Below, in pieces: positions 12,933 to 27,697 of a DNA stretch of 64,000 nucleotides. The position numbers were made by a program, and so were the translations under genes. The notes below the pieces were generated by a model that was not told the DNA's origin, did not search any database, and saw only the letters and a list, made by a program, of their open reading frames with translations. Each line of letters begins with the position of its first letter. Within the stretch, counting starts at the first letter, position 1. The stretch is from Nitrospirota bacterium (GTDB taxonomy: Bacteria; Nitrospirota; Thermodesulfovibrionia; Thermodesulfovibrionales; Dissulfurispiraceae): positions 192,001 through 256,000 of the forward strand of contig CAVPZX010000004.1 in NCBI GenBank assembly GCA_963710375.1. The letters run 5' to 3'.

Positions 12933-14408
12933 ATGAAGAATAATATTATGAAAAGATTCACAATGTTTCTGGTAATAGGTCTGCTGTTTACCTGCGCTTA
13001 CGCCGGCGCAGCATACGCAGGGGAGAATCCCAAGACTTGTCCGATATGCGCGATGGACTTGTCTGATGTCGCCAATAGCCGTATGACTGTCGTCTTTAGT
13101 GATGGGACCACTGTTGCGGTCTGCAGTCTGCACTGCGCAGTTTGGGAGATGAAACAAAACAAAGACAAGCAAGTTGAATCGATCATGGTCGCAGATTACG
13201 CAACAAAAAAGATGATAGATGCAAGAACTGCAACATGGGTTATCGGCGGTGATGAGATTGGTCTCATGAACGATGTGCCAAAATGGGCCTTTGCCAGTGG
13301 AGAGGATGCTCAGAATTTTGTGAAGGAACACGGCGGCAAAGTGGCTACCTACAACGAAGCGATGAAGGCTGCCGCCGATGAAGTGGCCTTGGAGGGAGGG
13401 CATATTATTCACCATCACCCCGGAGGCTCAATGGTGTTTAATCCGGCCTTTGGCGACGAGCTATACCATACTCACCCCGCCGGCATGTGGATGTTCACTT
13501 ACAAGACCATGTATATGAACATGGGCGGGCTGCGCGCCGGCACTAACAACGTCGATACACACAGTGTCGGTTATAGTAACAGTTCTATGAGCAGCGGTAT
13601 GGGTAGCGGTATGGGCAGCAGCAAGGCTTATAACTATATGATGATACCCACCTATATGGACATGTACATGCACATGTTTATGGCGATGTACGGGGTCACT
13701 GATAGCCTGACCCTGATGGGTATGGCTAACTATGAATATAATAATATGCAGATGGTGATGAATATGGGGCCGGGCATGCCTTACGTGTCCCAATCCCCTA
13801 TGCATACGGAAGGAGTCAGTGACACAGAGCTGCGCGGGCTGTACAAGATCAACAAATACCTGACCGGCAGTCTTGGTCTCAGCATTCCCACCGGCAGTAT
13901 CAAACAGACTGATGTGATGATGGGCAAAGAAGAACGGGCACCCTATGACATGCAACTTGGTTCCGGCACATGGGACCTCAAGCCTGTGCTGACATACAGC
14001 GCCCTCAGCGATAACTACAAATGGAACTGGGGTGCGCAGGCCATGTATACATATCATACAGGCACAAACAGTCAAGGCTATAGCCTCGGGGACGTCTTCA
14101 AGGTGACCAGTTGGCTGCAGCGCGTCTTCGGCCCTTCCACAACATGGTTGCGCCTTGCCTATAGCGATACGGGAAGGATCAGCGGCCAGGACTCCCAGAT
14201 CCAATTAAGCCAAATGTGGGCTCCGGCGCCTGATGGCGATCCCCGCAATTACGGGGGTCAGCGACTTGACGGTCTGATAGGAGTGAATATCGTGGCAGGC
14301 AGACTTACTTTTGGTGTCGAAGGCGGCATCCCACTCTATCAAAACCTGAACGGCCTACAATTGAAAACCCAATTTGTTATCAATACCGGTATTCAGGTAA
14401 TGTTTTAA
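12933..14408 (+). CDS. Fusion of a NosL-like domain, His-rich linker and Met-rich outer-membrane beta-barrel transporter
   Basis: Signal peptide, CPICAM, CSLHC, HIIHHHP, H.HPAG.WM, MQLGSGTWD, terminal QVMF. Confidence 0.85.
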   Translation: MKNNIMKRFTMFLVIGLLFTCAYAGAAYAGENPKTCPICAMDLSDVANSRMTVVFSDGTTVAVCSLHCAVWEMKQNKDKQVESIMVADYATKKMIDARTATWVIGGDEIGLMNDVPKWAFASGEDAQNFVKEHGGKVATYNEAMKAAADEVALEGGHIIHHHPGGSMVFNPAFGDELYHTHPAGMWMFTYKTMYMNMGGLRAGTNNVDTHSVGYSNSSMSSGMGSGMGSSKAYNYMMIPTYMDMYMHMFMAMYGVTDSLTLMGMANYEYNNMQMVMNMGPGMPYVSQSPMHTEGVSDTELRGLYKINKYLTGSLGLSIPTGSIKQTDVMMGKEERAPYDMQLGSGTWDLKPVLTYSALSDNYKWNWGAQAMYTYHTGTNSQGYSLGDVFKVTSWLQRVFGPSTTWLRLAYSDTGRISGQDSQIQLSQMWAPAPDGDPRNYGGQRLDGLIGVNIVAGRLTFGVEGGIPLYQNLNGLQLKTQFVINTGIQVMF

Positions 14409-14501
14409 GTTTACATCTGTTGCAGGATGTGATCGATTACAGTGACCGGCCACGAGGTTGCATGGTGAGAGAGACCTCGTGGCTTTCACTGTTCAGATCC
14501 C

Positions 14502-15503
14502 TTAATACCCTTCGAGCTTGAAGGGCGTGAAAACCATCTTGAACGTCACCATTGCGGTAAAGATCAGGAAGCACACAAGCGCAAATATAATAAGCCTTTT
14601 CTGTATAACCGGGATTATTTCCATCAGGCTGGCCACCTTCCTGAACGGCATCAGCACGCCCGTGCCCATGCCCGCAACGGTCCCCACGAAAAGACACAAA
14701 TACAGCGGATAACCGACGTAGTAGTATTCCTTGTGAAGTATATTGAACGGGCAGTGAAGGGACGGAAGCGCATAGTAATAGAGCGAGAAGAAGGATATTA
14801 TGGAGATTATGGCCATAACAAACGATATGCCGCAGAGGGAGGAAAATACGTAGCCTCCCCTGTCCTTGAGGTAAAAATATAATCCTGATGCAAGGGTCAA
14901 CGCCATTATCGTATAAAACGCGATCTTTCCGGGAATGCTGGGCACCGAGGCCAAATCCGAGGCAACGCCGGTTGAATTGCTGGTGAAGAGGGTGCTGCAG
15001 CACGAGGTAATGACGTCGGGCTTCAGCCCCAGGAAATATTTTGTCTGCAAAAAGGTCTCGGCAACTACTAACGGCGCTATAAAAATAAGCAACTTGTACT
15101 TGCTTTTGATAAGCGGATAGTCGTAGGCCCTGTTATCGGTATGGTTAAGTACGAGCCAGAGCCCGGCGGCTATGAAATTGAATACCTTTAGTATCAGCGT
15201 GGGATAGCCGTAGGAATTAACAGTCAGCGTACCCGAAGCGCACATGGCCCCGACAAAGAGGGGGTGGAGGAGGTCCGCAGTATAAACGTAAAGGAAGAGT
15301 GAAATGAGCTGGAAGCCGAAAACATAGGTGAGGATGGTGGAGATAAGGTAGGTCCTCCTTTCGAGGTCCAGTTGCAGTTCGCTGCCGCTCTTTATGTCCC
15401 ACTTCCTCAATATCAGTATGGCATAATAGGACGAGTAAAGAAGAAGCACGCTCATAAGGACTGAAGATAGAAAGAGGGCGATGATCGAGGGATGCAAGAT
15501 CAT
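14502..15503 (-). CDS. Polytopic membrane protein with MCASG, SCC and HCPF motifs
   Basis: Multiple hydrophobic helices; translationally coupled to the ABC ATPase. Confidence 0.85.
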   Translation of the reverse strand: MILHPSIIALFLSSVLMSVLLLYSSYYAILILRKWDIKSGSELQLDLERRTYLISTILTYVFGFQLISLFLYVYTADLLHPLFVGAMCASGTLTVNSYGYPTLILKVFNFIAAGLWLVLNHTDNRAYDYPLIKSKYKLLIFIAPLVVAETFLQTKYFLGLKPDVITSCCSTLFTSNSTGVASDLASVPSIPGKIAFYTIMALTLASGLYFYLKDRGGYVFSSLCGISFVMAIISIISFFSLYYYALPSLHCPFNILHKEYYYVGYPLYLCLFVGTVAGMGTGVLMPFRKVASLMEIIPVIQKRLIIFALVCFLIFTAMVTFKMVFTPFKLEGY

Positions 15504-16228
15504 GGCTGTTGATGCCCCCTGCTTAGCCTTCCGTCCCTCATCTCCACTATCCGGTCTATGATGGTGGAATCGAAGACAATGGGGTCATGACTGGCAATGA
15601 TAACCGTTTTACCATCCCCCTTCAAACTTTCCAAGATCCCCATGAACTCACCGGATAGTTTGGTGTCCAGGTGAGCGGTAGGCTCATCGGCAATTATTAC
15701 TGCCGGGTCGTTTATAAGTGCCCTGGCTATGCCCACACGCTGCGCCTCCCCGCCGGATAGCCATTCCACCTTTGAAAACAGCTTGCCGGAGAGGTTTAAA
15801 TCGCTTAAAATCCTTGAGGCACGTTCCCTGAGCAGCTTAAAGTCCTCTCCAATCGGATAGGCCGGCAGCATGACATTTTCGAGGACTGTTATGCCCTTGA
15901 TGAGGTTAAACTGCTGGAATATGAAGCCGAAGGCCCGCCTCCTTATCCCGGTGAGGAACCTCTCAGGCAGGCTGGTAACTTCCGCAGCCGCACCTTCGAC
16001 GGCAAGAGTCACGCGCCGCGTCAGTGAACCCGTCAGTTGTATCCTTCCTGAAGTGGGCCTCGCCATACAACCTATAATGCTCAGCAAAGTGGTCTTGCCC
16101 GACCCGCTCGGCCCCTTGAGCACCGTTATCTTGTGAGAATCAATAGACAGTGTTATCCCGTTAACCGCAGTAAACTCGTTAGGCCTGCCGCTGTTAAAGA
16201 CCTTCCTTATGTCTGAAAGCTCTATCAC
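15500..16228 (-). CDS. ABC transporter ATP-binding protein (LolD/MacB-like)
   Basis: GPSGSGKTT, FQQFNLI, LSGGEAQR, ADEPT. Confidence 0.95.
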   Translation of the reverse strand: MIELSDIRKVFNSGRPNEFTAVNGITLSIDSHKITVLKGPSGSGKTTLLSIIGCMARPTSGRIQLTGSLTRRVTLAVEGAAAEVTSLPERFLTGIRRRAFGFIFQQFNLIKGITVLENVMLPAYPIGEDFKLLRERASRILSDLNLSGKLFSKVEWLSGGEAQRVGIARALINDPAVIIADEPTAHLDTKLSGEFMGILESLKGDGKTVIIASHDPIVFDSTIIDRIVEMRDGRLSRGHQQP

Positions 16229-17352
16229 CTCATTACCGAATCCGGATCAACGGATGCGGCCCTCCATGACGGAACAATGGTCGCAACAGTGTAGGGCAGG
16301 ACCGACAGGAAAAAAAGGGTTATCACCTGTGTCTCGTCTATAAATGGGGTAAGCCTGAAGTTGGGGTAAAGAACGGACCATCCTTTAAGCACCGGCTCGA
16401 AAAGTGTTGAAGAGGTGAAGAACACATGGAAATAAGCCAGTATTATTCCGGCAAGGAAAGATGAAAGGGAAATGACCGTCCCCTCCCAGAATTTCATCAG
16501 TATCACATCGGATGTCTCCCAGCCGATGGCCTTCAGAATGCCTATCTCCCTCTTCTCCTCAGCGCTTAGGCCTGACGCCTTGTCCCATGCAAATATGATA
16601 AACGCCAGTCCCGCGCCCGCCATTATCACAAGCAGCAGGCCGCTTCGCCAGTTGAAGATAGAATTGTAGGTCCTCAGTATATCATCCCTGATTATAGGTC
16701 TTGTGTCAGGGTAAAGGTCCTTTATCTTTTGGGCAATGGTGGCAAACTCCCTGGAATTACGTACATGAAGAGTAATGTCGGTGAAGTACCCCTTCGAGAT
16801 TTCAAACACCCTTCTGAAGTCCTCTTCGGAAATCAGTATCAGGTCGGAGGATACTAACTCGGATTCAGACGACAGCGCACCCTTTATCCTCAGGACAACC
16901 GAGTCCCCATTGTAGCTTTTCAGCGAAAGGATGTCACCTTCGGATGCCCTCATGCTCCTGAGAATACCTTTGCCGACCTCGATTTGGCCCTTATCAGCGC
17001 CGCCTTCCGGCACTAATAGGGTAAAATTGGCCCGGGCTGCGGGTTCGAAGTAATACCCCCAAAGCCTTCCACTCGCAGATTGCACTCCTCTTATTTTTTT
17101 TATACCTTCAATATATCCCGCAGGCACCAACTCTTGCCTGCCGGCTACCAACCGTTGAACAGTAATGTCAGGAGAGTCCCGCAGTATTAAGGATGCCTCC
17201 TTCTTTATTGCTTCGGCAAAAAACATGACGGACGCCATCACGAAGACAACCAGCGTATATACAATCATCAGGGCTATGTTCTTGGTTTTTCTCCTCAGTA
17301 GTGAGGAGAGTGTGAAGTCGATGATGTTCCGCTGCCTTTCGAGCCATCTCAT
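16225..17352 (-). CDS. FtsX/MacB-like ABC permease
   Basis: REIGILKAIGW, PSWRAASVDP. Confidence 0.93.
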   Translation of the reverse strand: MRWLERQRNIIDFTLSSLLRRKTKNIALMIVYTLVVFVMASVMFFAEAIKKEASLILRDSPDITVQRLVAGRQELVPAGYIEGIKKIRGVQSASGRLWGYYFEPAARANFTLLVPEGGADKGQIEVGKGILRSMRASEGDILSLKSYNGDSVVLRIKGALSSESELVSSDLILISEEDFRRVFEISKGYFTDITLHVRNSREFATIAQKIKDLYPDTRPIIRDDILRTYNSIFNWRSGLLLVIMAGAGLAFIIFAWDKASGLSAEEKREIGILKAIGWETSDVILMKFWEGTVISLSSFLAGIILAYFHVFFTSSTLFEPVLKGWSVLYPNFRLTPFIDETQVITLFFLSVLPYTVATIVPSWRAASVDPDSVMR

Positions 17353-17371
17353 ATTCTATGCCCCTCCCACT

Positions 17372-17677
17372 TCATAAACGGTCTCCCTTCATTCTCAACT
17401 GGGCCGGCGGTTCCACAATGGAGCCCGATGGAAAGTGTTCAAGGGACATCGGGTGGTCCTCAAAAGGTGTATTAAAATCGGTTTGTGAAAGGTGCCTCGT
17501 ATACCTTGCCTCGGTAAAGAGACAAAGGTCCGTAAGCTGCAGCTTTTTCACCATTTCCGCTTTTAAGCCAAGCCCGGGAGCGGCAGCCTTTACGGCAAGA
17601 AGCGCATGGATGGACAATAAGAATGCCAACGCAAGGTTCACCGCAAGATAGATGAAGTATATACTAGATTTTCTCAT
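17372..17677 (-). CDS. Small membrane-anchored hypothetical protein
   Basis: One hydrophobic helix then LTDLCLFTEARYTRH...DHP..LEHFPSGS; in-operon position. Confidence 0.75.
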   Translation of the reverse strand: MRKSSIYFIYLAVNLALAFLLSIHALLAVKAAAPGLGLKAEMVKKLQLTDLCLFTEARYTRHLSQTDFNTPFEDHPMSLEHFPSGSIVEPPAQLRMKGDRL

Positions 17678-17730
17678 TCGCTCCATGCCATGAAATAAAC
17701 TAATGTTCCAACTGACTGCCACATTAAGGG

Positions 17731-18204
17731 CTATTTAATCGCTTTCATGACCTCTTCAGTTACATCCCCGAATCTCAATATCTTTCCCTTGTGATCATAC
17801 TGGAATGCCGAAGCGTCTTCCTCTGAACGGAACGGTATCAGCTCCCTGCCCATCGGACCGGTGACATTGCTGCCAACGACGTAATATGCCTTGCGGCCGT
17901 CAATAATTTTAAGGTCGTAGTATTCATGCACATATATGGAATCAATGTCATTGATGCTTTTTGAAGGATTGTACTCCTTCATATTCAGGTAATACCTGAA
18001 CATGTCCTTGCAGCCATCGAAGACCGCATATGTGCCGTCCTTGAAAATTATCTCAGCGATGATATCAGGGTACCTTGCTACGAACATGCCGCAAACCGGG
18101 CATTTGTCATTTTTTGCAGGCGTAACCGGCTTTCTTTCAGCAGCAGCCGGAGAAGAAACCAAAACAACAAGACATATGATTGCAAGCATGCGCCTGAAAA
18201 ACAT
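17731..18204 (-). CDS. NosL family (copper chaperone-like) exported protein, copy 2
   Basis: Signal peptide, CPVCGM, FDGCKDMF, GS.V.GPMG.ELIPF. Confidence 0.92.
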   Translation of the reverse strand: MFFRRMLAIICLVVLVSSPAAAERKPVTPAKNDKCPVCGMFVARYPDIIAEIIFKDGTYAVFDGCKDMFRYYLNMKEYNPSKSINDIDSIYVHEYYDLKIIDGRKAYYVVGSNVTGPMGRELIPFRSEEDASAFQYDHKGKILRFGDVTEEVMKAIK

Positions 18205-18227
18205 GACATCTCTCCCTAACAAAAATT

Positions 18228-18330
18228 AACCACGGAGGCACTGAGACACAGAGTTATACATGAGCAAAAAGAAAAAACCCTTTTTTTTATCGGCTGTTAT
18301 CTTTCTCTGTGCCTCTGTGTCTCTGTGGTT
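18228..18330. repeat. Octamer (CACAGAG-type) inverted tandem-repeat element
   Basis: aaccacggag gcactgag acacagag ... ctctgtgc ctctgtgt ctctgtggtt. Confidence 0.85.
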
Positions 18331-18351
18331 TCGCAGCTTTATCTTCTTTTT

Positions 18352-18387
18352 TCATTTTTCCAGCTGTTCCAGCACGATCTACTCAAA
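18352..18387 (-). pseudogene. Remnant of the tlpA 3' end between the two nosL copies
   Basis: Reads FE*IVLEQLEK*, against the TlpA C-terminus FEEFVREQLKRT*; 26 of 31 nt identical by hand alignment. Confidence 0.6.
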
Positions 18388-18395
18388 ATGAAGGT

Positions 18396-18869
18396 CTATT
18401 CAAGTGTCTTCAAGACCGCTTCAGTTACATCCCTGAATCTCAATATCTTTCCCTTGTGGTCTTTTTTGAACGCAGAAGCGTCTGCCTCTTTAAGGAACGG
18501 TATCAGTTCCTTGCCCATCGGACCGTAGACATCGCTGCCCATGACATAATAAGCCTGGCGGCCGTCAATATAGGTAAGGCTGTAGTATTCATGCACATAT
18601 ATGGAATCAATATCCTTGATGTTTTTTGAAGGATTGTACTTCTTCATATTCAGGTAGTACCTGAACATGTCCTTGGGGCCATCGAAGGCCGCATATGTGC
18701 CGTCCTTGAAAATTATCTCCGAGAGCATCTCAGGGTAACCCGCTATGAACATGCCGCATACCGGGCATCTGTCATCTTCCGTAGGCGTAACCGGCTTCCT
18801 TTCGGCGGCTGCGGGAGACGCAGCTAAAACGACAAGACATATTATTGGAACCAGGCGTCTGAAAAACAT
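18396..18869 (-). CDS. NosL family exported protein, copy 1
   Basis: CPVCGM, FDGPKDMF, GSDVYGPMGKELIPF; close paralog of 17731-18204; AGGAGG SD. Confidence 0.92.
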   Translation of the reverse strand: MFFRRLVPIICLVVLAASPAAAERKPVTPTEDDRCPVCGMFIAGYPEMLSEIIFKDGTYAAFDGPKDMFRYYLNMKKYNPSKNIKDIDSIYVHEYYSLTYIDGRQAYYVMGSDVYGPMGKELIPFLKEADASAFKKDHKGKILRFRDVTEAVLKTLE

Positions 18870-18889
18870 AATGTCCCTCCTTTTAAAGA

Positions 18890-18998
18890 ACGTGAACCGT
18901 GAAACGTGAATCGTGAATCGTAACAACCGTGAATCGTGAAAACAGGAAAATTTTTCTTAAAAATCTTTTACTTTTCGTTTCACGATTCACGATTCACG
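18890..18998. repeat. Heptamer (CGTGAAT/ATTCACG) inverted tandem-repeat element
   Basis: About 6 cgtgaa(t) units, AT-rich spacer, then ttcacg attcacg attcacg; supplies the tlpA stop codon. Confidence 0.85.
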
Positions 18999-19548
18999 TT
19001 CTTTTCAGTTGTTCCCGCACGAACTCCTCAAATACCGTCTGGCCGGCTTCACCCAGTATCTTCTGCCTTATGATACCGTCCCCGTCAATTATAAAAGTTA
19101 TAGGCAACCCGGTAACGCCAAAGCGCTTTGTGACCACTGCGCCAGGGTCGAGGAGCACTGGATATGTGATTGTAATACCGTTTACGAACTTCACCACAGG
19201 GGCTTTTTCCTGTCCTATATTGATGGCAAGAATGACCAGCCCCTTGTCCTTGTATTTATCGTATACCTTTTCTATTACTGGCATCTCCTCGGCGCAGGAC
19301 TTGCACCAGTCGGCCCAAAAACGTATGGCGACTACTTTGCCCTTCAGGTCTTCGGGGAATCTCCATGTCTTTCCGTTAATATCCGATAGTGAAAAGGCCG
19401 GGGCAGTCTGGCCGGTACTCAGGATGACCTTTTGGTCGGAACAACCGCAAAACAAACCTACGAGCAGGACAAAAAAAACGGCAAGAAACAAAGTTTGCAA
19501 ATATCCCCTGAAACTTCCCCGAACCATCTCGCCTGTTTTTTTGAACAT
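18994..19548 (-). CDS. TlpA/ResA family thioredoxin-like lipoprotein
   Basis: FWADWCKSC, APAFSL, GLPITFIID, lipobox-like FCGC. Confidence 0.93.
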   Translation of the reverse strand: MFKKTGEMVRGSFRGYLQTLFLAVFFVLLVGLFCGCSDQKVILSTGQTAPAFSLSDINGKTWRFPEDLKGKVVAIRFWADWCKSCAEEMPVIEKVYDKYKDKGLVILAINIGQEKAPVVKFVNGITITYPVLLDPGAVVTKRFGVTGLPITFIIDGDGIIRQKILGEAGQTVFEEFVREQLKRT

Positions 19549-23637: not shown

Positions 23638-23754
23638 AAAACAGCTTTGCTCGACTGCAGATTGTATGCGGTGACATGGCAACCGTTAGTGTTGACTCCT
23701 GTAAAAATGCATGATAATAATAGGTATTATATATTCTAAACTTATAATTTGAAG

Positions 23755-23783
23755 TTGACATAAAAGATGCCGTACTTTATTAT
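23755..23783 (+). promoter_or_regulatory. Sigma70-type promoter
   Basis: TTGACA-17 nt-TATTAT. Confidence 0.65.
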
Positions 23784-23926
23784 GAAGCTATAAGGTAATA
23801 TAATAAGGAGGAGGTGAGATTCTTTCAATATTCAAGGCTGTGCTCTATTCTTGACATACAGCATGGTAATTTGGGACAGTCAGCACATATGAAAAAAAGT
23901 AAAAGATGCTTGAAAATGGGGGAAAT

Positions 23927-25054
23927 ATGAGGCAAAAACTTACGGTTATAGTATTAGGGTTACTTGTCATAGCAGGGTTTATGTTTTTTGGGAGCGCTCC
24001 GAAGAACAGTATTGCTGCTATTGATATGTCCGGCGAATCGTGTTATACAATTCCTGGTGATTTCATAGACGCCAAGGTGGTCAAGCCGGAGAGTGTCACT
24101 TTTAATGGCATTGCATATATCGCAGGGCATGGCGGGCATATTGCGATTATCGATATGCGGACGATGAAGTCCCCGACTGACATAGAAAAAGACAGAATCG
24201 TACTTACCGAGGCCGGTTCCGAGATGGAAGGAAAGATAGCCGGTATGAGCTTTGAAGAGGTCAAGAAGGCCGGCGGTACACACGGTCAGGCGCTTGTTAC
24301 TGATAAGGGAAAAAAGATAATGATTGCCGGCACATTGGACGGCAATGTTTATAAGATTGACATGGCCACAGGGAAAAAAGAGGGCCCCTTCAAAGTCGGA
24401 GAGAAGTTCTGCGGCACTATCCTAGGTCCTGACGGCAATATCTATTTTGAGGACATGGCTGACGGCAATGTGTATGTGTGGAACGCTAAAAAGCTGAAGA
24501 CAGTAGATAAAATGCCGGTAGGCAAAGCTGTTTGCGGCATTCAGTGGACCAAAAACCATAATAAGGCTTACATAACCGATATGCCTACGGGTGTAGTATA
24601 TGTTTATAACTGGAAGACGAAAAAGGAAATTAAGCAGATTTCTAGTCCTGAGATGACCTTTATTCACCAGACACGCATGACTCCTGACGGGAAATACCTG
24701 TGGGTCAGCGCCCCCAACGAGTACGATCCAGGCCTCAAGCCTGGGACGCATAAGAGCCAGATTATCGTTATCGATACAAAGAAAGATAAGATAATTAAGA
24801 GGATCGTACTGCCTGATAATATAAGGCCCCACGACTTTGCATTTACCAAGGACGGCAAATATGCATTGCTTGCGTCCCGGACATATGGCGACGATAGCAA
24901 ACTTGTTGTAATGGATTTGAGGAATGCCGATATCGTTCGGGAGGTTTCGGCTTGTGCCAGCTGCCATAAGGCAGCAGGTGTAGAGGTCAAGATTGATAAG
25001 GGCTCACCTCTGCTTTGCGGATTGGAAGTAGATTGGCATCCAGGCAAAAAATAG
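23927..25054 (+). CDS. Exported YVTN/YncE-like beta-propeller with C-terminal CxxCH
   Basis: Signal peptide; about 40-aa blade repeats (VG..xG....DG..Y); CASCH. Confidence 0.85.
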   Translation: MRQKLTVIVLGLLVIAGFMFFGSAPKNSIAAIDMSGESCYTIPGDFIDAKVVKPESVTFNGIAYIAGHGGHIAIIDMRTMKSPTDIEKDRIVLTEAGSEMEGKIAGMSFEEVKKAGGTHGQALVTDKGKKIMIAGTLDGNVYKIDMATGKKEGPFKVGEKFCGTILGPDGNIYFEDMADGNVYVWNAKKLKTVDKMPVGKAVCGIQWTKNHNKAYITDMPTGVVYVYNWKTKKEIKQISSPEMTFIHQTRMTPDGKYLWVSAPNEYDPGLKPGTHKSQIIVIDTKKDKIIKRIVLPDNIRPHDFAFTKDGKYALLASRTYGDDSKLVVMDLRNADIVREVSACASCHKAAGVEVKIDKGSPLLCGLEVDWHPGKK

Positions 25055-25083: not shown

Positions 25084-25119
25084 AAAAAAGGGGCAGACTT
25101 ATTTATGCCCCTTTTTTTT
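25084..25119 (+). terminator. Intrinsic terminator between propeller and permease genes
   Basis: aaaaaa ggggca-loop-tgcccc followed by a T-run. Confidence 0.75.
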
Positions 25120-25143: not shown

Positions 25144-26352
25144 ATGAAGACAAGACTTAACATAGTTTCAATTGCGGTCAAAAACCTGAGCAGAAAAATC
25201 GTCAGGACAGTATTGCTGCTCCTGGCGGTTACGGTGGTCACCGGGACCATTTTTTTTGCAACTCTCTTCATATCCAGTATGCAGAACGCGCTGAAAATCG
25301 GCACATACCGGCTCGGCGCGGACATCCTTGTCGTGCCTGCAAAGAATGCCGCAGAAGCCCGTTCGGCCTTGCTCTCAGGGGAACCGGCCAGTTTTTACAT
25401 GGACAATTCCGTGCTCGAGAAAGTGAGACGTATTGAAGGCGTGAAGGAGGCGACGCCCCAGCTTTTTATCAAGCCGTCCTCCTTTGCGTGCTGTTTCAAT
25501 GTTGATGTCTTTCTAATGGCATTTGATCCGCTTACGGATTTTACCGTCACACCGTGGCTCGAAAAAAATATTAAAAAACCTCTGAGCGGCAACGAGGTGA
25601 TAACGGGCAGGAACATACCTGTAGTAACAGGTGATACGCTCCCCTTTTACGGCACGCCATTTACAGTTGTAGGGACACTTGAACCCACCGGCATGAAACT
25701 TTTTGACCAGGCCGTTTTTATGACCCTGGACGCTGCTTATGAGATGGCTGCAAATTCAAAGGCGAAAGCGATGCAGCCGATCACTATAGGCAGGAACGAG
25801 ATATCGGCGGTGCTGACAAGGGTTAAGAGTGATTATGCTCCCGACAGGGTAGCCCTCAGGATAGAGAACGACATCGACGGTGTCAAGGCGATTGTTTCGG
25901 ATGAAGTGTTGAACACGGTCAGAAAACAGTTGAACGGCCTTTTGAACGGCATTCTTCTTATAAGCGCTGTCGTATGGGTACTGGCCCTTTTGATGATGGG
26001 GTTTGCATTTTATATGATAGTGAATGAGCGGCAGCGTGAAGTGGGTTTGTTGAGAGCGATGGGAGCAAGGAAAATGCACATTTTCAGGCTTATAATAACG
26101 GAAGCCGTTATTATATCCACAGCAGGCGGCGTATGCGGGTTGATTGGCGGCTCGGCTATCCTGCTGACATTCAAGGGTCTGATTTTGCACAGCCTTAAAT
26201 TGCCGTATCTTCTGCCCCCACCGGGATTGCTCGCTGAACTGGTGGCTGGTACGCTGCTGTTTTCCATGCTGACGGGACTCCTTTCTTCCCTGTTGCCGGC
26301 TATTTCCGCGAGCAGGATGGAACCATATGAAGCGATTCGCAAAGGAGAGTGA
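25144..26352 (+). CDS. FtsX/MacB-like ABC permease with periplasmic ACC motif
   Basis: RLGADILVVP, ERQREVGLLRAMGA, PAISASRMEPYEAIR. Confidence 0.93.
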   Translation: MKTRLNIVSIAVKNLSRKIVRTVLLLLAVTVVTGTIFFATLFISSMQNALKIGTYRLGADILVVPAKNAAEARSALLSGEPASFYMDNSVLEKVRRIEGVKEATPQLFIKPSSFACCFNVDVFLMAFDPLTDFTVTPWLEKNIKKPLSGNEVITGRNIPVVTGDTLPFYGTPFTVVGTLEPTGMKLFDQAVFMTLDAAYEMAANSKAKAMQPITIGRNEISAVLTRVKSDYAPDRVALRIENDIDGVKAIVSDEVLNTVRKQLNGLLNGILLISAVVWVLALLMMGFAFYMIVNERQREVGLLRAMGARKMHIFRLIITEAVIISTAGGVCGLIGGSAILLTFKGLILHSLKLPYLLPPPGLLAELVAGTLLFSMLTGLLSSLLPAISASRMEPYEAIRKGE

Positions 26353-26353
26353 G

Positions 26354-27028
26354 ATGAGAAAAGGTATAGGTAGAGGTAAAGGTTTAGGCTTAGGTAAACA
26401 TAGGTTTTTTTTATTTTTTTTCTTAACCTTAACCTATACCTTTGCCTTGTTTTGCCTCTTTTCATGCAAGGGAAAAGAAACAACACAGGCAGGAAAGCAG
26501 GGTCCGGTATATAACCCCTATTCGACCGAATCGGTATATCTTGAAACAAGGCAAAGGGTGGAAGCTCATCCGGAAGATGCTGAGGCCTGGTTTCATCTCG
26601 CTAATTTATATGAAAGCAACGGGCAATATGCCGAAGCGATTGACGCTTATAAGAAGGTTGCGAAGCTGAGGCCTAAACAGGGATTCGTGTATGTCAAAAT
26701 AGGGACCTCTTATGACCAGATCGGGAAGCCCCGGGAAGCGGTGGAGGCATTTAAAAAGGCGGTGCATTTTATGCCGGGCTACGCGGTGGCATACAATAAC
26801 CTGGGGATAGCTTACGGAAAACTTGGCAGGAACCGCGAGGAAATAGCTGCGCTGAAGAAGGCTTTGCAGCTTCGTCCGCGATATGTCACCGCACGGTACA
26901 ATCTGGGAATTGCGTATCTGAGAGTTAAAGACAGGAAGGCGGCGCTGCAGCAATATGAGTTTTTAAAGGATGTCGAAACTGGGGCAGCAGAGGCGCTGAA
27001 AAAAGAGATCGACAGCAGTGGAAACTGA
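26354..27028 (+). CDS. TPR-repeat lipoprotein
   Basis: Lipobox LFSC; TPR motifs AYNNLGIAY, ARYNLGIAY. Confidence 0.88.
   Translation: MRKGIGRGKGLGLGKHRFFLFFFLTLTYTFALFCLFSCKGKETTQAGKQGPVYNPYSTESVYLETRQRVEAHPEDAEAWFHLANLYESNGQYAEAIDAYKKVAKLRPKQGFVYVKIGTSYDQIGKPREAVEAFKKAVHFMPGYAVAYNNLGIAYGKLGRNREEIAALKKALQLRPRYVTARYNLGIAYLRVKDRKAALQQYEFLKDVETGAAEALKKEIDSSGN
26362..26447. repeat. Hexamer AGGTTA/TAACCT element embedded in the TPR signal peptide coding region
   Basis: aggtat aggtag aggtaa aggttt aggctt aggtaa ... taacct taacct atacct ttgcct. Confidence 0.75.
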
Positions 27029-27031
27029 ATA

Positions 27032-27697
27032 ATGATAGAAATTAAGGACATTACCAAGACTTATACAATTGACGGGAAAAAAATCAAGGCGGTCGATAAT
27101 GCAAGCTTTTCGGTGAGCGCAGGTGAAATCTTATCTGTCATCGGTCATTCGGGAAGCGGGAAGACAACCCTCCTGAGTTTGATCGGAGGGCTGACAAAAC
27201 CGGATTCAGGCTCTGTCTTTATCAATGGAAGCGATATATGGTCAATGAATGATGACGATCTTTCGGGTTTCAGAAATAAAACTATCAGTTTTATTTTCCA
27301 GTTTTCGAGTCTTATCCCGACCCTTACGGCATTTGAAAATATCATTCTCCCGGTCACTTTCGGCATGCACGGCGGAGACACCGGCAGCTACGCAGAGCAG
27401 CTCTGTGAAGCTGTAGGCCTTAGTGATAAAATGCGCTCTTACCCTTCACAGCTTTCAGGTGGCCAGCAGAGGAGAGTTGCCATTGCGAGGGCCTTTATAA
27501 CCAAGCCTGCTATTGTCCTTGCCGATGAGCCTACCGGAGATCTTGATGAAGAGACCGAAGCTGAAATGATCAGTTTATTTAAAAAGTTCAACGAAGAAAA
27601 CGGCACTGTTTTTATTATCGTTACTCATAATACAGACCTTGCAAAACAGACCGGACGTCAGTTGAAAATGAGCAACGGTGTTATTATGCCTGTTTAG
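27032..27697 (+). CDS. ABC transporter ATP-binding protein (LolD-like)
   Basis: [26 protein letters not shown]. Confidence 0.95.

Follow-up and report, generated by a model that had tools for sequence, protein, structure and literature searches.

A predicted six-bladed propeller with a His/Cys ring and a CxxCH motif

The window analysed here is a 64,000-nucleotide stretch of Nitrospirota DNA, and the gene under study occupies positions 23927..25054 of its + strand. The gene is an intact open reading frame (ORF) encoding a 375-aa protein with a Sec-type N-terminal signal or anchor, a predicted six-bladed beta-propeller, a ring of His and Cys residues, and a CxxCH motif. Genes for an ABC permease, a TPR lipoprotein, and an ABC ATPase lie downstream, and a promoter and a conserved upstream element lie ahead of it. 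A previous, sequence-only reading had listed eight motifs in this protein, and all of them are where it placed them in the translated ORF: GHGGH at residues 67-71, THG at 118, FCG at 161, VCG at 202, IHQ at 246, PHD at 301, CASCH at 343-347, and LCG at 363. The same reading had claimed that six of these motifs place a His or Cys at a blade entry, and had proposed structure prediction and homolog conservation as checks.

We examined an AF2 model of the propeller (mean pLDDT 89.9, from a 66-row alignment). DSSP assigned six four-stranded blades to this model, with a C-terminal strand (363-369) closing the propeller. The blade-entry residues in the AF2 model and DSSP assignment are H119, C162, C203, H247, H302, and C364, whose codons begin at 24281, 24410, 24533, 24665, 24830, and 25016 (24281..25018, + strand). 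Five of them start the first strand of their own blade, C364 doing so on the C-terminal closure strand, and H247 is at the equivalent sequence position, just ahead of a shorter DSSP strand (249-251). The claim about the blade entries is therefore borne out in the model, where the six positions turn out to be every blade, the propeller being six-bladed; a model of a second clade, described below, agrees. The model does not show the seven blades that the YVTN and YncE labels imply. The best structural match is the six-bladed nidogen 1npe_A (Z 24.6, rmsd 2.9, 254 aligned residues). With His and Cys making up 15 of the 375 residues, the chance of finding one at six of six entries is ~4e-9, or 2e-6 when a slack of +-1 is allowed. 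Among non-family propeller matches, His or Cys fills 101 of 1498 cells (6.7%) at the same columns.

M177, M219, E265, D303, and R318 are expected on the same face as the ring residues. From standard propeller topology, we infer that the face of the blade entries also bears the loop with the CxxCH helix and the b-c loops (H68/H71, M177, M219, E265, R318), and the blade register in the model suggests that the ring residues would converge on the pore. The CxxCH motif itself (C343-A-S-C346-H347; 24953..24967, + strand), a predicted c-type heme attachment site, is found on a helix (344-350) in the loop that closes blade 6 onto blade 1 in the model.

Searches by sequence and by fold found no solved homolog of the family. 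Thiocyanate dehydrogenase (TcDH) was not among the best 50 VIA rows, which excludes nothing. The ESM Atlas returned clusters with automatic "cytochrome D1", "YncE", or "hypothetical" names only, and a plasmid search with the relative P0271 gave no match.

Conservation of the ring across two clades

With the window protein as the query, we found 573 relatives. A second query, P0222, gave 744 matches centred on a second clade, B, which matches the clade of the window protein with an hhalign probability of 99.8 and whose members are 18-29% identical to the window protein. Reduction to 80% identity gave 205 rows: 59 from clade A1, 109 from clade B, and 37 divergent. Ten of the divergent rows were non-family YVTN proteins and were dropped before later counts.

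All of the ring residues, along with M177, M219, E265, D303, R318, and CxxCH, are present in 59/59 clade A1 rows. Clade B, in its own alignment, has H88 (108/110), C148 (109/110), M162 (108/110), H197, R264, H304, C370, and CxxCH (each 110/110). It thereby keeps the equivalents of H119, C162, H302, C364, M177, and CxxCH, with C203 replaced by His and H247 by Arg, and its model is also six-bladed with the equivalent residues at blade entries. The ring is thus invariant in A1 and largely kept in clade B, and conservation of the ligand columns is 0.93-0.95, compared to a median of 0.45. The N-terminal GHGGH fared less uniformly: the motif is present, and of its two His residues H71 is fixed, but H68 varies (H/E/R/M). 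As judged from the alignment, the ring is not fixed across the whole family, given that H119 is absent in 12/24 divergent heme-bearing clade A rows; five rows lose both H302 and C364. Structural disulfides, which the earlier reading had named as a refuting outcome, are unlikely: C162 and C364 remain where C203 becomes His, which argues against a C162-C203 disulfide.

The family belongs to anaerobes of the sulfur cycle and is found in 68/121 genomes of the window's order. A clade B profile at E<=1e-8 detects it in 66/221 genomes of the phylum, and in the phylum of a Desulfobulbia-labelled record it is found in 6/301 genomes, the record at the centre included. It also occurs in Myxococcota-labelled loci and in one Euryarchaeota-labelled protein. 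Named close relatives are "YncE family" entries from Nitrospirota/Dissulfurispiraceae.

Circularly permuted and tandem members exist. Of the longer forms, three are double propellers in tandem with circular permutation and one is a WD40 bystander, and no new partner domain was found among them. In P0127, the propeller is part of an archaeal-type surface protein of 2470 aa that is annotated with S-layer and PGF-pre-PGF. Several divergent members (P0122, P0123, P0133, P0141, P0396) end in a Gly-Cys tail (GC, GCG, GCM, GCI), which may supply a further ligand or reflect an ORF cut short at a Sec codon. Other divergent, permuted or tandem propellers (L146:9352-11097, L150:9626-11395, L133:9122-11377, L138:9387-10571) are encoded behind a phosphate-porin-O/P-like gene, some with CX6CH and Ig-like repeats, in a setting that recalls the ExtI porin of the Geobacter ext operon.

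The ring and the heme motif appear to be separable

Across the alignment, the two residues between the cysteines of CxxCH form at least 40 different dipeptides, with C, C, and H fixed; outlying forms are CX3CH in P0143 and CX6CH in L146 and L150. The window's genome encodes three CcsA-family heme-attachment genes. At the sequence level, then, the protein qualifies as a c-type cytochrome, having CxxCH in an exported protein from a genome with heme-attachment genes. H71 (codon at 24137..24139, + strand) is found in 190/190 aligned rows with a C-terminal CxxCH and in 0/3 heme-less rows, with two rows gapped at this position; the heme-less rows are a single branch, so this co-variation represents few independent events. 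H71 is the likely sixth (distal) heme ligand by this pattern, and H71 and H347 could be the axial ligands of an electron-transfer heme next to an independent pore site.

Four relatives (P0154, P0169, P0195, P0270) keep the H-C-C-H-H-C ring, M177, and M219, and have neither CxxCH nor H71. Four others (P0159, P0166, P0217, P0402) keep CxxCH and H71 and have lost C364 and H302. Ring and heme thus appear to be cleanly separable modules. In P0125, a loop on the same face contains an additional class I cytochrome c domain (PF13442 31.4 bits, cut-off 27), as expected for an electron-transfer entry point. None of the 205 family rows has a Tat signal, which argues against a cytoplasm-built Fe-S cofactor.

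The propeller is encoded with a Cys-Cys permease and copper chaperones

Downstream of the propeller gene is an FtsX/MacB-type (type VII) ABC permease (25144..26352, + strand; Pfam FtsX and MacB_PCD) with a periplasmic Cys116-Cys117 pair. A permease starts at most 1.7 kb downstream of the propeller in 118/133 loci (clade A 99/109, clade B 19/24). C116 and C117 are invariant in 48/48 aligned rows, which had been pre-chosen for CC, and CC is found in 91/96 unselected members of the permease cluster. An ATPase follows the permease, here a LolD-like ABC ATPase (27032..27697, + strand). Clade A operons also encode a TPR lipoprotein (26327..27028, + strand), whose cluster is found in 58/81 loci. Between propeller and permease is a terminator-like hairpin with a U-run (25084..25117, + strand; -16.7 kcal/mol, z -4.1). 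Such a hairpin occurs at this place in 76/118 loci, compared to ~1% of shuffles, and suggests an abundant propeller and scarcer helpers. A complex prediction of the propeller, two FtsX periplasmic domains, and heme scored 0.00, which weighs neither way. The SaoP selenoprotein permease was rejected as a relative of the Cys-Cys permease, SaoP being MetI-type.

In loci not chosen for linkage, clade A operons encode NosL on the same strand in 28/73 cases and DUF4418 in 24/73, and clade B operons encode PCuAC in 6/24. Two unrelated copper chaperones have joined the operon in different lineages. NosL and PCuAC are described as Cu chaperones for CuZ and CuA/CuB in the accessible part of the source (PMC7558416). 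YeeE/YedE-like genes lie directly upstream of the propeller in several loci; among loci not chosen for linkage, YeeE is nearby in 5/97.

Near the main operon, L299:3264-5927, L300:468-3455, and L306:6131-7837 encode degenerate propeller paralogs that retain only the heme motif, together with extended FtsX permeases of ~567 aa whose N-terminal membrane part bears Cys and His. The window also contains a separate cluster (12933-19548), ~4 kb upstream of the propeller. Its first gene (12933-14408) encodes a NosL fused to a MetA-pathway-type barrel through a His/Met-rich linker, and the others encode two NosL proteins, an FtsX permease without Cys-Cys, an ATPase, a TSCC-motif membrane protein, and a TlpA-like thioredoxin.

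An upstream element is common to propeller operons and MccSep/ExtKL genes

The propeller gene is preceded by a sigma-70-type promoter, TTGACA-17-TATTAT (23755..23783, + strand), which makes 11/12 consensus matches and is the region's best site. Its -35 box is the 3' end of a conserved upstream element (23737..23760, + strand) with the consensus TAAANTTANAATTTGAAGTTGACA. A Shine-Dalgarno-like GGAGGTG (23810..23816, + strand) that is a perfect anti-SD complement is located ~110 nt upstream of the start codon. A distal site of this kind is found in 117/164 upstream regions, and we take GGAGGTG here to be possibly mRNA-stabilising (the STAB-SD idea).

The 24-bp element is present in 75/164 upstream regions, from both clades, and in none of the shuffles; another count, 81/160, leaves out the window's own site. 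Where PCuAC is inserted upstream of the propeller (5 genomes), the element sits ahead of PCuAC, and where a porin gene is inserted first, it is likewise found ahead of that gene. The element is likely the operator of a regulator. In the window's genome, the site at 23737-23760 is the only one of at least 15 bits, and a single site in a genome would be unusual for a global regulator.

An exact pattern search of the order found 53 element sites in 42/121 genomes, with a single site for the reversed-pattern control. Thirty-two of the 53 head propeller operons, which is expected, the pattern being derived from such operons. Of the 21 others, seven head MccSep/ExtKL genes (above the NF040886 cut-off), six head split-Soret-like C_GCAxxG genes (one of which was scored, at 152 bits against a cut-off of 400), three head rhodanese, ArsR-DsrE/F, or YeiH genes, and two head metal-uptake genes (NosL with an FtrD-like gene; a TonB receptor). 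The remaining three are at a YVTN/transglutaminase/ArsS-ArsM cluster, at one other place, and at a contig end. According to the accessible parts of two reports, MccSep is a periplasmic polysulfide reductase that is needed for S0 respiration, is S0-induced, and is common in Thermodesulfovibrionia (10.1101/2025.11.18.688581; PMC13510729).

Propeller and MccSep genes lie on one strand within 0.3-6.5 kb of each other in 8/42 genomes with both, spanning five families and both clades. Among loci not chosen for linkage, MccSep is near in 2/97. By genome, 42 have both, 26 the propeller only, 20 MccSep only, and 33 neither (OR 2.7, where kin are not independent). The window's genome has no MccSep. It also has no dsrA at 98.8% completeness, though 115/121 genomes of the order do, and a YeeE/YedE gene is present. 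A tie between the propeller and dsrA was rejected: families f5 and f11 have dsrA in 20/22 genomes and the propeller in 0/22, and the window's genome shows the opposite. This genome further encodes a caa3-type oxidase cluster, a NorC-like gene, and several octaheme proteins.

At some sites, unannotated leader ORFs of ~90-115 aa with a conserved D-V/I-C-like motif immediately follow the element and precede genes of the MccSep, split-Soret-like, NosL, or TonB type (L259:1538-1819, L263:1556-1822, L278:5675-5977, L289:387-707, L294:9190-9492, L247:1178-1510). They matched no Pfam family, may resemble CruR/DUF2946, and are possibly metal- or sulfur-sensing upstream ORFs. Element-headed clusters with split-Soret-like and MccSep genes also encode a second, distinct YVTN propeller of ~405 aa, which scores 86.9 bits against L-NosZ (L275:3276-4487, L278:4262-5479).

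Comparison with known propellers and sulfur enzymes

The sequence-only reading had concluded that the protein is neither NosZ nor a typical cd1 nitrite reductase, and this holds on the NCBIfam and Pfam scores, the absence of CuA, and the six blades. The match to L-NosZ (NF052460) reaches 44.7 bits against a cut-off of 700, over profile positions 88-232 of 480 only. The protein ends at 375 aa with the blade closure and without a C-terminal CuA cupredoxin domain, and it has six blades with 3 His and 3 Cys at their entries, not seven blades with seven CuZ His. Seven His ligands are given for CuZ in the accessible part of PMC7558416. The family resembles NosZ and L-NosZ in having His at blade entries, predicted to line the pore, and NosL and an ABC transporter in the operon. 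It differs in that the transporter is FtsX/MacB-type, not NosFY, and in that NosD is not among the conserved neighbours.

YVTN-like blades are shared with cd1, NirN, and the YncE-YVTN proteins, and PF02239 matches with 36.1 bits (cut-off 25.5) over residues 203-340 only. Cytochrome cd1 has eight blades, and its class I cytochrome forms a domain of its own. The propeller studied here has six blades, its CxxCH is on a short helix of a blade-linking loop, and the PF02239 match is partial, so a cd1 nitrite reductase was rejected. The seven-bladed YncE (NF052280) was likewise rejected, at 28 bits against a cut-off of 400 and with six blades; the automatic "YncE family" names are misleading.

TcDH is described, in the accessible parts of two papers, as a seven-bladed tricopper propeller that oxidises the sulfur of thiocyanate to S0 and donates the electrons to cytochrome c552 (PMC9456337, PMC6504805). 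TcDH (PDB 5F75, 8Q9X) is periplasmic and binds a Cu cluster in its central tunnel through blade-entry His, and it carries out a two-electron oxidation of sulfur with a c-type cytochrome acceptor and Cu genes nearby (PMC9456337, PMC6504805), features that would be mirrored in the enzyme we propose below. The family profile matches TcDH at E ~1e-8 over ~100 C-terminal positions with a blade-entry His in register, and the spacing of TcDH His528-Asp529...Arg544 equals that of H302-D303...R318. Generic YVTN propellers nevertheless outscore TcDH with this profile, which indicates shared blades, not shared chemistry. TcDH is seven-bladed, ~470-550 aa, and Tat-exported, with His/Lys/Asp ligands, a separate cytochrome, and no Cys in its listed active site, whereas the family has six blades, 3 His, 3 Cys and Met, a Sec-type signal, a built-in CxxCH, and a dedicated FtsX-type ABC transporter. 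Membership in TcDH was therefore rejected (six blades, 375 aa, and no Tat motif in 205 rows, against seven blades and ~500 aa with Tat). The active site given for TcDH in PMC6504805, as far as that source is accessible, is Lys103, His135/136, His206, Glu288, Asp314, His381, His437, His482, His528, Asp529, and Arg544. The propeller does not have this set: ~100 C-terminal positions align, and three entry positions are Cys.

Two multiheme sulfur enzymes also invite comparison. The MccSep/ExtKL multiheme selenoprotein (NF040886) is, like the proposed propeller enzyme, a periplasmic sulfur enzyme with heme c, and it has the same upstream element and is often linked. Its fold is unrelated, with five hemes, Sec/Cys catalysis, and no Cu, making it a regulon partner and not a homolog. 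MccA, a heme c-copper sulfite reductase, likewise combines heme c and Cu to act on sulfur. It has a Cys-bound Cu site and a NosL-like chaperone, MccL, but differs from the propeller in its octaheme fold, single Cu, and lack of a propeller. By analogy, the family would work most like the TcDH/NosZ-type copper propellers, differing in its thiolate-rich ligands, six blades, built-in heme, and own transporter.

A candidate copper-thiolate/heme c oxidoreductase

Altogether, these data point to a real, conserved, uncharacterised metalloprotein system, as far as sequences and models allow. A metal ring wired to a c-type heme, which the earlier reading had proposed, is supported by conservation in two clades, the six-blade register in two independent models, co-transcribed copper chaperones, and H71/CxxCH co-variation. 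The operon, the regulon, and the sulfur link are new beyond that first reading of the motifs.

Our best explanation, to which we assign a little less than an even chance, is that the propeller is a periplasmic oxidoreductase with a Cu-thiolate site and heme c whose substrate is sulfide or polysulfide, TcDH-like with a built-in cytochrome. The protein would be exported unfolded by Sec, and C343/C346 would then take up the heme, axially ligated by H347 and H71. Cu(I) would come from NosL or PCuAC, and the Cys-Cys FtsX/ATPase with its TPR and DUF4418 helpers would load or mature the ring, as NosDFYL does for CuZ. HS- or polysulfide would undergo two-electron redox on at least two Cu ions in the pore, and electrons would leave via the heme to periplasmic cytochromes; oxidation to sulfane sulfur is slightly favoured as the direction by analogy to TcDH. 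The copper reading rests on NosL and PCuAC in the operon. The sulfur substrate is suggested by the element common to MccSep/ExtKL, rhodanese, DsrE/F, YeiH, and split-Soret-like genes, and by the MccSep linkage. Several results weigh against the proposal: the window's genome has neither MccSep nor dsrA, genome co-occurrence with MccSep is loose, MccSep and YeeE are rarely near the propeller in loci not chosen for linkage, the regulon includes metal-uptake genes, and H119 is not kept throughout the divergent rows. Taken step by step, we regard the metal ring as highly probable, the c-type heme as nearly as safe, copper as probable, a catalyst over a carrier as fairly probable, and a sulfur substrate as somewhat better than even. 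These estimates are correlated, and jointly they leave the full proposal just short of an even chance.

The most serious alternative, although in our view unlikely, is that the propeller handles metal for the type VII ABC transporter, as a periplasmic binder of Cu (or Fe, Se, or a heavy metal) whose heme tunes the redox state of the metal before uptake, delivery, or export. The model for such a role is the P19/FetP protein with its FtsX-type Fet iron system. The permease, with its own Cys-Cys, is 3' of the gene in 118/133 loci from both clades, the hairpin, which would leave less permease than propeller mRNA, is likewise characteristic of genes for binding proteins, and the regulon holds TonB receptor, NosL, PCuAC, and FtrD-like genes. 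Geobacter extH/extKL are reported to be Fur-regulated, according to the accessible part of PMC5877670, and the element could therefore answer to metal and not to sulfur. Against this, a global regulator such as Fur would be expected to have many sites, and the window's genome has one of at least 15 bits; 10/21 non-propeller sites head MccSep or sulfur carrier or transport genes; and the extra cytochrome c domain of P0125, together with the fixed Asp-Arg pair and the Glu around the pore, suits catalysis.

It is less probable still that the propeller is a copper-free sulfur enzyme, with C162 or C364 as the distal heme ligand or a persulfide carrier and a pore holding Fe, Zn, Ni, or no metal. The regulon evidence fits it exactly as it fits the Cu-thiolate oxidoreductase, C162 and C364 are the Cys retained in both clades, and several sulfur cytochromes, TsdA, SoxA, and MccSep among them, use His/Cys-ligated hemes for catalysis (10.1101/2025.11.18.688581, in its accessible part). 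However, the ring persists in heme-less members, it is H71 and no ring Cys that tracks CxxCH, the operons have taken up two unrelated Cu chaperones, and the His/Cys/Met set is typical of Cu(I).

An N-oxide or oxygen reductase, in which a NosZ-like Cu ring with Cys thiolates for the mu-sulfide and heme c for CuA would reduce N2O, NO, or O2, is improbable. L-NosZ is the top NCBIfam match at 44.7 bits, but that score is far under the cut-off and falls on generic blades. NosL is the dedicated CuZ chaperone (PMC7558416, in its accessible part), and clade III nosZ is reported to adjoin transporter and cytochrome genes in Nitrospirota (PMC13477213), yet the propeller has six blades with 3 blade-entry His against 7 for CuZ, and no nos, nor, or nir genes are found among its conserved neighbours or at the 53 element sites. 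A non-catalytic secreted scaffold with disulfide-bonded Cys and structural His is very improbable: by geometric estimate the neighbouring entry residues C162 and C203 could be near enough to pair, and a degenerate subgroup loses ring residues, but the C162 and C364 equivalents are kept (109-110/110) where C203 is His, and the 0.93-0.95 conservation of the ligand columns (median 0.45) and the chaperone and CxxCH evidence speak against it.

Implications

We found no description of the propeller family in the literature searched, nor of beta-propeller, CxxCH, NosL, periplasmic, and copper in combination; subscription work on L-NosZ and on the S0 transcriptome may bear on novelty. The family is undescribed in PMC13477213 and in the accessible parts of 10.1101/2022.07.06.499078, PMC4794192, and PMC12998232, and the supplements of the last make no mention of YncE, YVTN, propeller, FtsX, NosL, or ExtKL. 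The mechanism of sulfur disproportionation is described there, in its accessible part, as enigmatic (PMC12998232). The anaerobic activation, reduction, and disproportionation of elemental sulfur and polysulfide are still largely open, with MccSep shown only in 2025-26, and the family, labelled "YncE" or "hypothetical", occurs in 68 of 121 genomes sampled from an order that is prominent in sediments and aquifers. For experiments, the propeller offers a compact, soluble protein that can be expressed, with its ligands named, its heme predicted, and its promoter defined, and its upstream element predicts a directly testable regulon.

A Cu ring of protein thiolates with a built-in heme, if true, would give the copper enzymes of the propeller type a new arrangement of cofactors. 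We tentatively raise, as a rather unlikely outcome, that a six-bladed propeller with a polynuclear Cu-thiolate ring, its own heme c, and a dedicated Cys-Cys ABC transporter is a new class of metalloenzyme for a missing sulfide/polysulfide step. If so, it would perform this periplasmic step in more than half of the Thermodesulfovibrionales-type genomes, for instance as the oxidative half of S0 disproportionation or as a route of sulfide oxidation that needs neither SQR nor FccAB, and would belong to a new sulfur regulon shared with MccSep.
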